Shown in pieces: positions 5,905 through 10,784 of a stretch of DNA of 64,000 nt (its first letter is position 1; each line of letters starts with the position of its first letter). The stretch is taken from NCBI GenBank assembly GCA_947475245.1, contig CANJLW010000001.1, forward strand, positions 36,025 to 100,024, read 5' to 3'. The notes beneath the pieces were generated by a model. The model was not told the origin of the DNA and did not search any database. It saw only the letters and a program-made list of their open reading frames with translations. The position numbers and the translations under genes are program-made. Source of the DNA: Acetobacteraceae bacterium. GTDB taxonomy: Bacteria > Pseudomonadota > Alphaproteobacteria > Acetobacterales > Acetobacteraceae.

Positions 5905-6080
5905 GGGTATCTTCGCGGCATTTCACTGGCCGAGAGAGCTGATTTTTACCACAAAGGACACCGAGGACCACAAAGGATGCACAAAGGTGTCTGAGGCGGC
6001 GTAACTCTTTGTGCCTCCTCTGTGGTCCTCGGTGTCCTCTGTGGTAAAAAATGCGATCGCGCGACCGCTCGGACGTCACC
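5905..6080. repeat. 176-bp intergenic repeat, copy 1, with long imperfect inverted repeat (arms 5942-5986 and 6007-6052)
   Basis: Ungapped match to 7086-7261 at offset 1181, 26 mismatches in 176 nt by manual count. Left arm atttttaccacaaaggacaccgaggaccacaaaggatgcacaaag matches the reverse complement of the right arm with 3 substitutions. Confidence 0.92.
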
Positions 6081-6184
6081 TGCCGGTCTCCGGCTGAACG
6101 GTAACGGGAATAAATGCGCATTTGACCCGTCCGACGGGGGCGCGTAGGGCACGCGTGCCGGCGAGCAAGGGATTGGGGGACGGA

Positions 6185-7030
6185 ATGGCGGTTGAACAGA
6201 ACGATCTGCTTCGATATGCGAATATGCAGAAATCGGTCTATAATCCAGTCGGTAAGGACAATCCGGAGGAGATCGTCGGGTGGTACGGCTACCACGAGAA
6301 TGTACCGTATGAAACGAACCTGCTGTATCGCTACGGGGATATCAGGCGCCCCATCTTTCCCGATTTTCAGAAGCTGAGGGCATTCGACATCGGATGCGGC
6401 GAAGGGCGGATGATCCGCCGCATGCAGCGGATTTTCGGCCAGGTGGACGGCGCCGATATCAGCGAGGCCATGGTGGAACACGCCCGCGCGCGCAGCCCGA
6501 ACAGTGAGATTTATGTCTCCTCGGGGCTGGATGCGGGTCAGGCACCGTCGGACACGTATGATTTTGCCTATTGCACGATTTCACTTCAGCATGTCTGCGT
6601 GCACGCCACGCGGGACGCGATTCTCGACGATATCGTCCGTATTCTGAAGCCGGACGGCAAGATGACGCTGCAAATGCTATTTTCGAAGTATTACCCTTTC
6701 CACCACCCGCGGCGGATCAGGCAACTTGGCCGATGGGGCCTGCAACTGTTCAATAAGGACAGTAACAACGGCACCTGGTTTCAAAACAAAACCGACGCGC
6801 AAGGCACCAACGGGCGCTGCGACGTGGTGATCGGCACCAACGAACTGACCGCCGTCCGCGCCGATCTGCTGAAGAAATTCGGCGTTGTCGAGTTCTGGTT
6901 CTACGATATCTCCATCGATCGCGCCGGCGCGCGTTCGTTGCCGGAGAACCATCTCAACAGTCATATCGACGATCAATACTGGGGAACGCATTTCGTCTTC
7001 ATCCACTGCGCGGAACCGCGCAAGGGCTGA
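6185..7030 (+). CDS. Class I SAM-dependent methyltransferase (Methyltransf_11/25-like)
   Basis: Motif I FDIGCGEGR, motif II VDGADISEAMV, later YDFAYCTISLQH and RILKPDGK. GC is visibly lower than the flanks. Confidence 0.85.
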   Translation: MAVEQNDLLRYANMQKSVYNPVGKDNPEEIVGWYGYHENVPYETNLLYRYGDIRRPIFPDFQKLRAFDIGCGEGRMIRRMQRIFGQVDGADISEAMVEHARARSPNSEIYVSSGLDAGQAPSDTYDFAYCTISLQHVCVHATRDAILDDIVRILKPDGKMTLQMLFSKYYPFHHPRRIRQLGRWGLQLFNKDSNNGTWFQNKTDAQGTNGRCDVVIGTNELTAVRADLLKKFGVVEFWFYDISIDRAGARSLPENHLNSHIDDQYWGTHFVFIHCAEPRKG

Positions 7031-7085: not shown

Positions 7086-7261
7086 GGGTATCCTGGCGGC
7101 GTTTCAGTGGTCGAGAGGCCGGATTTTTACCACGGAGGACACGGAGAACCACAAAGGATGCACAAAGGTGCCTGAGGAGGCGTCAATCTTTGTGCCTCCT
7201 TTGTGGTCCTTTGTGTCCTTTGTGGTAAAAAATGCGGTCTCGCAACCGGTTGGACGTGACC
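7086..7261. repeat. 176-bp intergenic repeat, copy 2, with long imperfect inverted repeat (about 7123-7233)
   Basis: Direct repeat of 5905-6080 with the same hairpin architecture. Confidence 0.92.
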
Positions 7262-7381: not shown

Positions 7382-8782
7382 GTGGCGCTGAAACCGACGG
7401 GATTCTGGAGCTATTCCAGCACTGACGAGGCTGCCTCCAATGGCCGGTTAAGCCGGTTGCGGCAGCAGATCGAACGCGAGTTACAGCTACAAGTCGGTCG
7501 GCCGAAGGTTGAAATCTTCCACGATATCACCTCCATTCCGCCTGGCACGGATTGGAACGACGTGATCACGGCGGCGCTCGAAAACTCCTCCTTCTTCATT
7601 CCAATCATTACCCCCGCTTTCCTGCACAGCGAGGTTTGCGCGTGGGAGGTAAAGACGTTCCGCGACATCATGAAAAAGCGTGGTCGTCACGACCTGATAG
7701 TCCCTATCTATTATTTGGATGTGGATGCACACGGGGTCGAACGCCGCCACGAATGGCACGATCCGACGATCCTGGATTTTTTGTTGACAAAGCACTGGTT
7801 GGATTTTCGTGCGTTGCGCGTCCGGGATCCGTCGACCGAGCCGGTGACCGAGTGGGTCGCCAAGACCGGGAAGGCAATCTATGCGACGCTCTCTAAGCCA
7901 CCCTCTAAACCGTTCACGACGTCGCCCGAGCAGAATACCCAGCAAGACCATCCGACTCCGCAGCCTTCGGTGTCCGTCAAACCCGTCCGCGCCCCCGGCA
8001 CCCGCTTCCGCGACCAGCCCCACTTTCCCGAAATGGTCGTCATCTCCCCCGGTCGCTTCATCATGGGTAGCGACAAATCCGGCCCCCACGCCGAACCGGG
8101 ACACAACAGCGACGAATCCCCCGCCCACGAAGTCGGCATCGCCGCCGCTTTCGCGCTCGGCCGCCTGCCGGTCACAAGGGGCGAATACGCCGCCTTCGTC
8201 AAGGCAACCGGCTACGATGCGGGCTCGGACTGGCAAGAACCCGACTTCCCCCAGACCGACGATCACCCCGTCGTGGGCGTGTCGTGGATCGATGCGGAGG
8301 CGTTTATCGATTGGCTGAACGCAGACCTTGCCGATAAACCCTACCGCCTGCCGACGGAGGCGGAATGGGAATACGCCGCGCGAGGGCAGACCGTGCTCGG
8401 CCCCCGGACGGAATTCGCGACCGGCGCGCGGATCGAACCCAACCAGGCGCAATACCGTTGGTCCGAAAGCTACGCCGGGTCGAAAACCCGATCCAAGGGC
8501 GCGCCCGGCACGGCGGTCGCGGGCAGCTTCCCGGGCAATGCGTTCGGCCTGCGCGATATGCACGGCAACGTCTGGGAATGGACGCAGGATGCCTATCGGG
8601 ACTCCTACAACGGCGCCCCGGACGACGGCAGCGCCATGGAGTTCACCCATTTCGAGTATCGCGTCCTGCGGGGCGGGTCCTGGATCTACAAGCCAAGGGA
8701 CCTGCGTTCTGCAACCCGCATCGAGGGTAAGCCTTCCGTCCGTGCCCCCTGGCTCGGCGTTCGGGTTGCGAGGACGCTGTAA
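7382..8782 (+). CDS. TIR-domain + FGE-sulfatase (SUMF1 / C-type lectin fold) fusion protein
   Basis: Probable GTG start at 7382 after GGAGA, in frame with ORF 7232..8782. TIR N-terminus: GFWSYSSTD, IFHDITSIPPGTDW, FFIPIITPAFLHSEVCAWEV. A Pro/Gln/Thr/Ser linker follows, then FGE motifs FPEMVVISPGRFIMGS, DESPAHEV, HPVVGVSWIDA, YRLPTEAEWEYAAR, NAFGLRDMHGNVWEW and RVLRGGSW. Confidence 0.88.
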   Translation: MALKPTGFWSYSSTDEAASNGRLSRLRQQIERELQLQVGRPKVEIFHDITSIPPGTDWNDVITAALENSSFFIPIITPAFLHSEVCAWEVKTFRDIMKKRGRHDLIVPIYYLDVDAHGVERRHEWHDPTILDFLLTKHWLDFRALRVRDPSTEPVTEWVAKTGKAIYATLSKPPSKPFTTSPEQNTQQDHPTPQPSVSVKPVRAPGTRFRDQPHFPEMVVISPGRFIMGSDKSGPHAEPGHNSDESPAHEVGIAAAFALGRLPVTRGEYAAFVKATGYDAGSDWQEPDFPQTDDHPVVGVSWIDAEAFIDWLNADLADKPYRLPTEAEWEYAARGQTVLGPRTEFATGARIEPNQAQYRWSESYAGSKTRSKGAPGTAVAGSFPGNAFGLRDMHGNVWEWTQDAYRDSYNGAPDDGSAMEFTHFEYRVLRGGSWIYKPRDLRSATRIEGKPSVRAPWLGVRVARTL

Positions 8783-8839
8783 CCTCTTGATTTTTTCAAT
8801 TTTTTACCTCTTGGGGTGGTCTGGAGGGGCGCTTGCCCC
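8660..8839 (+). other. Candidate DGR variable region with downstream pyrimidine tract and GC hairpin
   Basis: The C-terminus RVLRGGSW-IYK-P-R-D-LRSA-T-R-IEGK-P-SV-R-APWL-G-V-RVARTL* fits the DGR CLec VR scaffold. It is followed by cctctt-T-rich-cctctt (8783-8812) and the hairpin GGGGC-GCTT-GCCCC (8826-8839). No template repeat or RT in the window. Confidence 0.5.
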
Positions 8840-8961
8840 GCGGCCGTGCCGCCGTTCCGGCCGGTAACGCCGAGCTTGGCGCGCGGGAAGGGTGTTTCGT
8901 ATAATCGACGGTCCTGATCCACCCCGCCCGCCCGGTCAAAGCCGGACTTTGTTTTGCCGCG

Positions 8962-9660
8962 AAAGAACCCCTTGCACCCTGAACAACACCCCGCCGCCCG
9001 GTGCCGCAAGCCGACGCTTTTCGATGCCGGGAGTGACACGGTGTCGGCGCGGCGTTTCACGAAGGCGTTGGATCGACGCGCGGCAGGCCACCCGAACCTC
9101 CGCCGGACCCGCGCGGACAAGCAATCCGACGGCAACACCCTATGCGCCGTGAGGATGCCTCCCGCGGTCCGGCAGGCTCCGCGAAACGCCCACGCAAACA
9201 ATGTCGCCCAACCCGCCCCCGCGCGGGCCGCGTCGAATGGAAATCCAACAGCAAAGACCCCATGCAACCTGAACAACGCCCCACCGCCCGGTGCCGCCCT
9301 TATGATGCACGGAGTTTCACGAAGTCATCGGATCGACGCGCGGCAGGCCACCCGAACCTCCGCCGGACCCGCGCGGAAAAGCAGTCCGACGGCAACACCC
9401 TATGCGCCGTGAGGATGCCTCCCGCGGTCCGGCAGGCTCCGCGAACCTCCCACGCAAACACTGTCGCCCAACCCGCCCCCGCCGAGGCCGCGTGGAATGG
9501 AAATCCGACGCAAAGACCCCATGCACCCTGAACAACGCCCCGCCGCCCGCCGCCGCTTACCGCGATGGCGCGGCGTTTCACAAAGGCGTCGGATCGCCCC
9601 GCCGCCATCGAGAACCGGAAATCCGGGGGAATTACCCCATACACCCTGAGCAATCCCCGC
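8962..9660. repeat. Degenerate tandem repeat: units 8962-9252, 9253-9511, partial 9512-about 9630, fourth motif about 9631-9660
   Basis: Each unit opens with a variant of aaagaccccatgcaccctgaacaac. Segments 9071-9250 and 9331-9510 differ at 11 of 180 positions (manual count). Confidence 0.9.
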
Positions 9661-9677
9661 GGGCCGAGGCGTCGGCG

Positions 9678-9995
9678 CTACTTCCCAGGCTCGACCCGCG
9701 CCACCCAGACCAGCCGACCCAGACGCGCCAGGTTCTCCGGCGTCACCTGGCGCAGGCGGATGCGGTTCACCGCCTTGTCACGCCCGGCGAAGACGCCGTA
9801 GCGGGCCAGACGTTCATTGTGGAACCGTTCCGGATTGAAATCCAGCACCACGATCACGGTGCGCGGCTCGCTCGCCCCGCGCAGGCTTGGGTCAAGCCGA
9901 TGCGCCGCCGTCGCCATGCCGACAAGGTCCTGCCCGAACAGCACCAGGGCGATCAGCAGTACGCCGATCAGCAGGCGTATGCGCGCGGCGCGCAT
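9678..9995 (-). CDS. Small hypothetical protein (105 aa) with N-terminal signal/TM segment; last gene of the ABC operon
   Basis: ATG 3 bp after the permease stop; hydrophobic stretch LLIGVLLIALVLFG; GC-rich third codon positions. Confidence 0.65.
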   Translation of the reverse strand: MRAARIRLLIGVLLIALVLFGQDLVGMATAAHRLDPSLRGASEPRTVIVVLDFNPERFHNERLARYGVFAGRDKAVNRIRLRQVTPENLARLGRLVWVARVEPGK

Positions 9996-9998
9996 GGC

Positions 9999-10784
9999 TC
10001 AGCGGCTCCGGTCCGGGGCGATCAGGCCCCAGCGCTGCACGGTGCGGCGTTCGATCGGCAGCAGCAGCCAGCGATCCATGGCCATGGCGATGGCGCCGAT
10101 GATCAGGCAGCCCGCCACGATGATGTCGGCGCGGTGATACTCCGCCCCGCTGAAGATCAACTGCCCCAGCCCGGTCGTCGCGCCCACCAGTTCCGCCGCG
10201 ATCAGCGCGCGCCAGCCGAACCCAAGGCCGGATCGGATGCCGGTCAGGATATAGGGCAGGGCGCCCGGCAGGGTGACGGATCGGATCGACTCCCACCGGC
10301 TCGCTCCCAGCGTGCGCACGCCGTATTCCAGCACTTCCGGCACCAGTTGCACGCCCAGAACGGTATTCTGGAACACGATGAAGAACACGCTGTTCCAGAT
10401 CAGGAAGATCGCCAGCGCGCTGCCGACGCCGAACCAGCCGATGACCAGCGGCAGCCAGACGATGCCGGAAATGGCGTTGAAGAACACAACCAGCGGCGTA
10501 AGGAACGCCGCGATCGGACGATGCAGCCCGGCAACGAAGCCGGCGATCGTGCCGGTAACGATGCCGCACGCCGCCCCGCCCAGCAAACGGCCCAGACTGG
10601 CCAGGATGTCGGCGCCCAGCCGGTCGCCGAGCGCGAGTTCGCCGAAGGTGGCGATAACCCCGACGACCGATGGCATGACGGACGGCGGCGGCTGCTCGAT
10701 CGCCCAGTAGATCGACCAGGCCAGCAGCAGAACGGCGGGCGGGGCGGCGGGCAGCAGCCGCCAGACGATACGGTTCACCGTCAT
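9999..10784 (-). CDS. NitT/TauT family ABC transporter permease
   Basis: True start MTVNRIVWRLL (ATGA overlap at 10781-10784) inside ORF 9999..11489. EAA-like loop YGVRTLGASRWESIRSVTLPGALP and WRALIAAEL. Confidence 0.88.
   Translation of the reverse strand: MTVNRIVWRLLPAAPPAVLLLAWSIYWAIEQPPPSVMPSVVGVIATFGELALGDRLGADILASLGRLLGGAACGIVTGTIAGFVAGLHRPIAAFLTPLVVFFNAISGIVWLPLVIGWFGVGSALAIFLIWNSVFFIVFQNTVLGVQLVPEVLEYGVRTLGASRWESIRSVTLPGALPYILTGIRSGLGFGWRALIAAELVGATTGLGQLIFSGAEYHRADIIVAGCLIIGAIAMAMDRWLLLPIERRTVQRWGLIAPDRSR

Follow-up and report, generated by a model that had tools for sequence, protein, structure and literature searches.

The gene at positions 7382-8782 of the window (the whole 64,000-nt stretch of DNA that was analyzed) joins a TIR domain to a C-type-lectin-fold (CLec) domain of the FGE type. 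It raises the question of whether its 3′ end is the variable region (VR) of a diversity-generating retroelement (DGR) and, if so, whether the encoded receptor is still being diversified. We consider it probable, at roughly 70%, that positions 8656-8776 are the fossil VR of a DGR that has since been lost, and that this VR is one of six such targets in the genome. The relevant features are listed here, in window coordinates except for the window itself.

G000:C1:36025-100024, the window, which contains the gene and the VR under study
7382..8782, plus strand, TIR–FGE(CLec) gene, 466 aa, GTG start (ORF list and Pfam)
7496..7763, plus strand, TIR domain core, TIR_2, residues 89-177 of the 516-aa frame (Pfam)
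8027..8773, plus strand, FGE-sulfatase/C-type-lectin-fold domain (PF03781, E 8e-63), a ligand-binding scaffold
8656..8776, plus strand, variable region (VR), with scaffold codons the same as in the sister VR on contig C64
8756..8782, plus strand, IMH-like 3′ end of the VR, GGCGTTCGGGTTGCGAGGACGCTGTAA, its role predicted by analogy with characterized DGRs
8783..8825, plus strand, CT/T-rich 3′ flank, cctcttg…ttacctcttgggg, with homologous counterparts at five other DGR-type targets of this genome and at congeneric DGR VRs
8826..8839, plus strand, short hairpin GGGGC-GCTT-GCCCC, with GGGGC at 8826-8830, the loop GCTT, and GCCCC at 8835-8839

The 466-aa product begins with MALKPTGFWSY, and the exact protein is already in the public record. 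Pfam analysis of the 7382-8782 product identified TIR_2 (E 1.8e-11) and FGE-sulfatase, the latter down to the last residues, and the protein ends in the peptide YRVLRGGSWIYKPRDLRSATRIEGKPSVRAPWLGVRVARTL*. Among solved structures, the relatives of the C-terminal domain comprise PvdO (5hha, the closest), FGEs, and the DGR target TvpA (2y3c, E 1.7e-14). Formylglycine-generating enzymes have a catalytic cysteine pair in the RGGSW…R segment, after the RGGS motif. The corresponding segment of the TIR–FGE protein, RGGSWIYKPRDLRSATRIEGKPSVRAPWLGVRVARTL, was read from the sequence and does not contain any Cys, which argues for a binding scaffold instead of an enzyme. The TIR domain retains a Glu within CAWEV, a position that we take to be the NADase catalytic residue of TIR domains. 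In an alignment to PDB 3ozi, this residue pairs with the Glu in CLMEL of the flax L6 TIR. With its putative catalytic Glu kept, the domain may act as an NADase or as a signaling effector. As the gene product lacks a transmembrane segment, it is predicted to be cytoplasmic. By analogy, its most likely role is that of a cytoplasmic sensor–effector: a ligand would be bound by the CLec face, the former VR, and the TIR domain would act on binding. Its nearest non-self homologues are at most 57% identical, and the PSVRA-type scaffold occurs in none of them.

The VR lies at the 3′ end of the ORF within a CLec/FGE-type fold, as DGR targets require (length ~100-150 nt). The scaffold, peptide, and codons described in the earlier note, which had proposed a remote DGR target here, are all present in the sequence. 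The VR comprises 18 variable sites spanning 8684 to 8753, with variable codons starting at 8684, 8687, 8690, 8693, 8696, 8699, and 8714, and further ones at 8720, 8723, 8726, 8729, 8747, and 8753. Its last 12 nt, AGGACGCTGTAA, are the same as the VR ends of a working DGR in the congener G004. A cognate template repeat (TR) would match GTATCGCGTCCTGCGGGGCGGGTCCTGG…CTGCGTTCTGCA…CCTTCCGTCCGTGCC…GGCGTTCGGGTTGCGAGG and carry an adenine at each variable site. Several scaffold codons are rare within their synonymous families, which applies to CCA (3.9%), AGG (2.6%), CGT (10.5%), TCT (2.8%), GCA (5.2%), CCT (3.2%), and GTT (8.3%). The atypical codon usage reported earlier is therefore real, and its effect is modest: a CAI-like score of 0.47 for the VR compares with 0.65 upstream, and the VR window ranks just 19th lowest of 426.

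Downstream of the stop codon, the flank runs from cctctt (8783) through a T-rich stretch and a second cctctt (8807) to the hairpin, exactly the elements that had been noted before. Taken by itself, the hairpin is within chance (z −1.26), as 18 of 200 shuffles fold equally well. It corresponds to the inner 5 bp of an 11-bp stem on C64, which scores z −4.45 and carries a T-run, and the homology to C64 stops at its last base, 8839. The scaffold motif is likewise weak evidence alone, since it is the same as the Pfam FGE C-terminus found in non-DGR paralogues. Neither the scaffold motif nor the 5-bp hairpin proves anything by itself. The support that lifts the VR above chance is comparative, i.e., the sister copy on C64 and the homology of the flank to those of working DGR targets.

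A DNA search revealed one other copy of the VR in the own genome, at C64:7347-7530 on the minus strand, with 83% identity over exactly 8656-8839. This copy ends a 718-aa TIR–TM–coiled-coil–FGE paralogue. Upstream, the FGE domains of the two genes share ~60% DNA identity, and the jump in identity begins at GTATCGCGTCC (8656). Between 8657 and 8782, the two copies show 20 base differences in 15 codons. Fifteen of these differences fall on codon positions 1-2, 12 are transversions, 11 have A in one of the copies, and the residue is altered in 12 of the 15 differing codons. The remaining VR codons match those of C64, synonymous sites included. At conserved residues, the same codon is used in 26 of 29 cases within the VR vs. 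60 of 112 upstream (Fisher p = 2.5e-4). The homology continues beyond the stop codon, including part of the flank, which a duplication would also produce. However, the non-coding flank after the VR is just ~80% identical, whereas the scaffold codons are 100% identical, the reverse of what a single duplication followed by drift would leave. The scaffold thus seems to have been homogenized after the flanks diverged, which fits repeated copying (homing) from one TR. GTC at 8738, GCC at 8744, and TGG at 8750 are the same in both VRs, although they are Asn positions in the TRs of congeners. Either the lost TR had no A at these positions, or the two VRs partly share an ancestry that postdates diversification.

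The DGRs of congeners provided a reference for this pattern. Congener G034 (L020) carries a complete canonical DGR in the order target (TIR–TM–FGE), Avd, RT, and TR. Its RT has the motifs IGNLTSQ and YVDD, its TR is Asn-rich, and each of the 14 mismatches between VR and TR coincides with a TR adenine (14/14). Homology between the G034 target and the window protein spans the TIR as well as the FGE domain (E 7e-90). In total, DGR RTs occur in 16 of 61 congeners, and 12 of these RTs are at least 71% identical to that of G034. Congener G004 has one VR linked to its RT (L075, G004:C66) and a second on another contig (L023, G004:C44:18700-18860), where it is more than 18 kb away from either contig end. 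Within the VR, the mismatches are at TR adenines in 15 of 15 cases for the linked copy and in 9 of 10 for the C44 copy; one extra mismatch per VR is located at the IMH boundary. G004 thus documents, as a positive control, that targets in the DGR lineage of this genus can be distant from the RT. Both of its VRs end in the same 12 nt as the window VR and have the same flank. Derived from a proven TR, these two VRs also differ from each other as the window and C64 VRs do, namely at the first two positions of Asn-type codons while the scaffold stays constant, and so serve as a positive control for the pairwise comparison.

The congeneric TRs equal the window VR in length, from W to A-S/R. Of the variable codons, 12 of 13 fall on codons with A at position 1 or 2 in a congeneric TR, vs. 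4 of 17 for the other codons (p = 2e-4), and the same test with three other TRs gave p-values of 0.0007-0.009. The earlier note had singled out nine codons as former Asn positions. Eight of them (atc, tac, gac, atc, ggt, gtc, gcc, and ccc) are indeed placed where congeneric TRs have AAC. For the ninth, acc, the assignment is valid for some congeneric TRs only, as others have ACC or ATC. The tgg at 8750 falls on an AAC position as well and does not fit, in agreement with the note. Identity between the congeneric TRs and the window VR scaffold is 50-67% at non-A positions, so these TRs are not the templates of the window VR. From the VR–VR comparison together with these heterologous TRs, we infer that past mutagenesis of the window VR was probably adenine-specific.

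An alignable CT-rich flank and hairpin is common to six targets of the own genome (C1, C64, C8:72777, C46, C5, and C12) and to the VRs of congeneric DGRs. The flank is absent from the ordinary FGE paralogues C18, C3, and C8:44893 and from the EgtB-like C1:282463. Three of the six CLec targets are fused to TIR. Querying with the Avd of G034 revealed two truncated Avd homologues, on C12 and C5, each just downstream of a sibling FGE target. The C12 homologue is 80% identical to G034 Avd, lacks ~19 C-terminal residues, and is followed by a HigA-like XRE gene, while the C5 homologue is 54% identical and cut after ~70 residues. No RT or TR follows either gene. Both remnants were detected with the G034 Avd protein only, and the Pfam model 23S_rRNA_IVP did not identify any Avd in the own genome.

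The loci of these siblings differ in their makeup. G000:C12:15914-18445 is a decayed DGR cassette with a pentapeptide-repeat–FGE target and the truncated avd, and the HigA-like XRE gene is found at the expected place of the RT. A second decayed cassette, G000:C5:179960-182431, comprises a separate TIR ORF, an FGE target, and the avd stump. The sixth DGR-type target, at G000:C8:~71550-72777 on the minus strand, has a pentapeptide-repeat N-terminus and an FGE C-terminus (…RVARGGSWSVIPRITRAGYRFGSDISDRSRLRAAIGFRVVRT). Its flank is of the same CT-rich type, its hairpin, CAAAGGGGGCGCGCCCCCTTTG, has a 10-bp stem, and there is no avd nearby.

The assembly, apparently a metagenome-assembled draft, consists of 89 contigs and is 99.1% complete. 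As the earlier note had stated, there is no RT, Avd, or TR within the 64,000-nt window. No DGR RT was found in the assembly either, and the G034 DGR RT query did not retrieve anything beyond an RT on contig C46. This protein, the sole RVT_1 match in the assembly (461 aa), was rejected as a DGR RT. It shows QGGPLSP and YADD motifs and a maturase-like tail, and the surrounding intron matches the Rfam models group-II-D1D4-6 and Intron_gpII (D1-D4, D5), identifying it as a group II intron RT. The contig ends of the assembly do not contain RT or TR fragments. The genome-wide BLASTN search that had been proposed for locating the TR (word size 7) did not produce a TR-like copy in the own genome and returned the sister VR on C64 instead. 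An Asn-rich RGGSW frame was also absent from the own genome in a scan that recovers the control TRs of G034 and G015. Beyond this genome, a search of 60 relatives, among them 36 of the same genus, did not reveal a cognate TR. In genome_contigs, an exact-pattern scan gave seven matches, none a cognate TR and all unrelated FGE C-termini from other phyla. In metagenome_contigs, a first pattern gave no match and a second gave 26, none of them a TR and none family-A-like, the best of the 26 showing 78% identity on a 45-nt fragment. With regard to the earlier proposal that the lack of both TR and RT in the genome and its close relatives would speak against a DGR target, both are absent from the genome, and a DGR RT is present in the 16 congeners mentioned above.

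On contig C46, the group II intron is placed directly 3′ of the third TIR–FGE paralogue (G000:C46:7440-9330, minus strand; L011). The insertion apparently separates the two arms of the target hairpin, in the order CCAAAAGGG, intron, …CCCCCTTTTGG, and then a T-run.

Ten loci, from two NCBI MAGs, four ENA assemblies, and four Logan runs, were compared to assess variation in the population. The VR DNA is identical in all 10 contigs, which represent at least eight samples; these are contig consensus sequences, in which minority variants would be hidden. The DNA of the gene and of its 118-nt flank is the same in the 10 loci, save for single SNPs at 8304 or 8586. At the protein level, the exact TIR–FGE protein occurs on 17 contigs, and its 90% cluster has three members, the other two of which each have a single residue change, located outside the VR. 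The C64 protein forms a one-member cluster and is found on nine contigs. The sampled population is nearly clonal, so the invariance of the VR samples little time. The "potentially hypervariable" receptor of the earlier note is thus not what we observe, as the VR is invariant in at least eight independent samples and the genome has truncated Avd but no DGR RT or TR. Its remote-target reading holds for a DGR-type VR in a TIR–CLec gene, away from any cassette and with the target flank of this lineage, and fails where it is put in the present tense. With the retroelement lost and the region the same in every public copy, the locus is best described as a relic and not as an actively hypervariable receptor.

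A plausible course of events can be outlined. A DGR lineage that is common in the genus, with its Avd, IGNLTSQ RT, and Asn-codon-rich TR, would have copied the TR by error-prone, adenine-specific reverse transcription. At least two dispersed targets of one family, equipped with IMH-like ends, CT-rich flanks, and GC hairpins, would have received these copies, i.e., the window gene and, on C64, the TIR–TM–FGE paralogue. RT and TR would have been lost later, so that six CLec targets were left as orphans, alongside two avd genes in truncated form. The VR would now evolve as ordinary DNA and be fixed in the population.

The strongest competing explanation, which we nevertheless consider unlikely, is that the VR is still a live target of a remote DGR. 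The RT, Avd, and cognate TR of this functional DGR would be located on DNA that the draft does not include, for example an unbinned contig, a plasmid, or a prophage, and would continue to diversify the VR, perhaps rarely or conditionally. The G004 DGR, which acts on a VR of another contig, speaks for such an arrangement, as do the RTs of the 16 congeners, the 89-contig state of the draft, the intact IMH-like end with 12 nt the same as in a working target, and the possibility that minority variants hide behind the contig consensus. Yet a 99.1%-complete assembly, contig ends included, holds no RT or TR fragment, both avd genes are truncated and without RT and TR, and the hairpin is down to 5 bp. 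Moreover, the VR DNA is the same in the 10 contigs from at least eight samples while SNPs exist elsewhere in the gene, and neither genome_contigs, metagenome_contigs, nor the 60 relatives yielded a cognate TR. Along the same line, the six dispersed CLec targets, three of them TIR-fused, could form a live repertoire served by an RT and TR on an unassembled or intermittently acquired mobile element. Specificities may then stay "locked in" between episodes of diversification. We regard this scenario as rather improbable, and a functional link between the group II intron in the C46 target hairpin and DGR target sites is still more speculative.

An origin without any DGR, in which an FGE paralogue was homogenized with C64 by gene conversion or segmental duplication and diversifying selection acted on the binding face, would agree with the scaffold motif being generic to Pfam FGE-sulfatase, with the absence of a TR that proves adenine mutagenesis, and with the GTC, GCC, and TGG codons common to both copies at TR Asn-codon positions, but is very unlikely given that the differences coincide with the A-bearing codons of related TRs, that proven DGR targets have a homologous flank which ordinary FGE paralogues lack, that avd remnants adjoin sibling targets, and that the G004 VR pair from a proven TR shows the same kind of differences.

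TIR–CLec proteins have already been described as DGR targets, both in cyanobacteria (PMC7517822) and in Thiohalocapsa PB-PSB1 and other multicellular bacteria (PMC10907252). For such DGR-diversified conflict systems, a sensor–effector role was proposed (PMC10907252), and the incomplete DGR loci of PB-PSB1 are mostly still diversified, in trans (PMC10907252). The fossil VR proposed here resembles the VRs of these cyanobacterial and PB-PSB1 targets in its position within the final ~120 nt of a CLec domain of the FGE type that is preceded by an N-terminal TIR domain, in the presence of dispersed paralogous targets away from an RT, and in its variable sites at codon positions 1-2. In contrast to them, the window genome lacks RT and TR, and the window VR is invariant in populations. 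Compared to the G034 and G004 cassettes, the window has homologous TIR and FGE domains, equal VR length, the scaffold, the CT-rich flank, and the hairpin, whereas its gene is devoid of the transmembrane segment and the Pro-rich linker, and its hairpin is shortened. TvpA of Treponema denticola shares the homologous FGE/CLec domain and a C-terminal VR; unlike the window protein, it is a lipoprotein without TIR and is encoded beside an intact DGR. FGEs and PvdO have the same fold as the window domain and belong to the same Pfam family.

Orphan targets of lost DGRs are invisible to surveys, because DGR surveys start from the RT. The present case indicates that relics can be recognized without a TR by paired VRs with the same scaffold codons, Asn-type differences, and a lineage-specific flank. 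Six relics in one genome, three of them TIR-fused, near truncated avd, would also provide a case for studying how receptor specificities are retained or selected after the DGR is gone. At the same time, they call for caution, as the C-terminus of a CLec protein should not be termed "hypervariable" on the basis of the scaffold alone.

Regarding other observations around the gene, the region downstream of it (8900-9660) contains degenerate repeats of ~260 bp, and similar peptide-like repeats are present near C5:177100-179500. Tandem Repeats Finder did not report any tandem repeats in 8700-10000. The MAG contig L038 is exactly 260 bp shorter in this repeat region than the window and L039, so the repeat copy number differs between assemblies. 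Just upstream of the TIR–FGE gene, a methyltransferase gene (6122-7030) is flanked by near-identical hairpin-forming repeats (…CACAAAGGATGCACAAAGGTGCC…GGCACAAAG…) at 7120-7235 and ~5950-6060, which resemble the termini of a small cassette that was inserted here.
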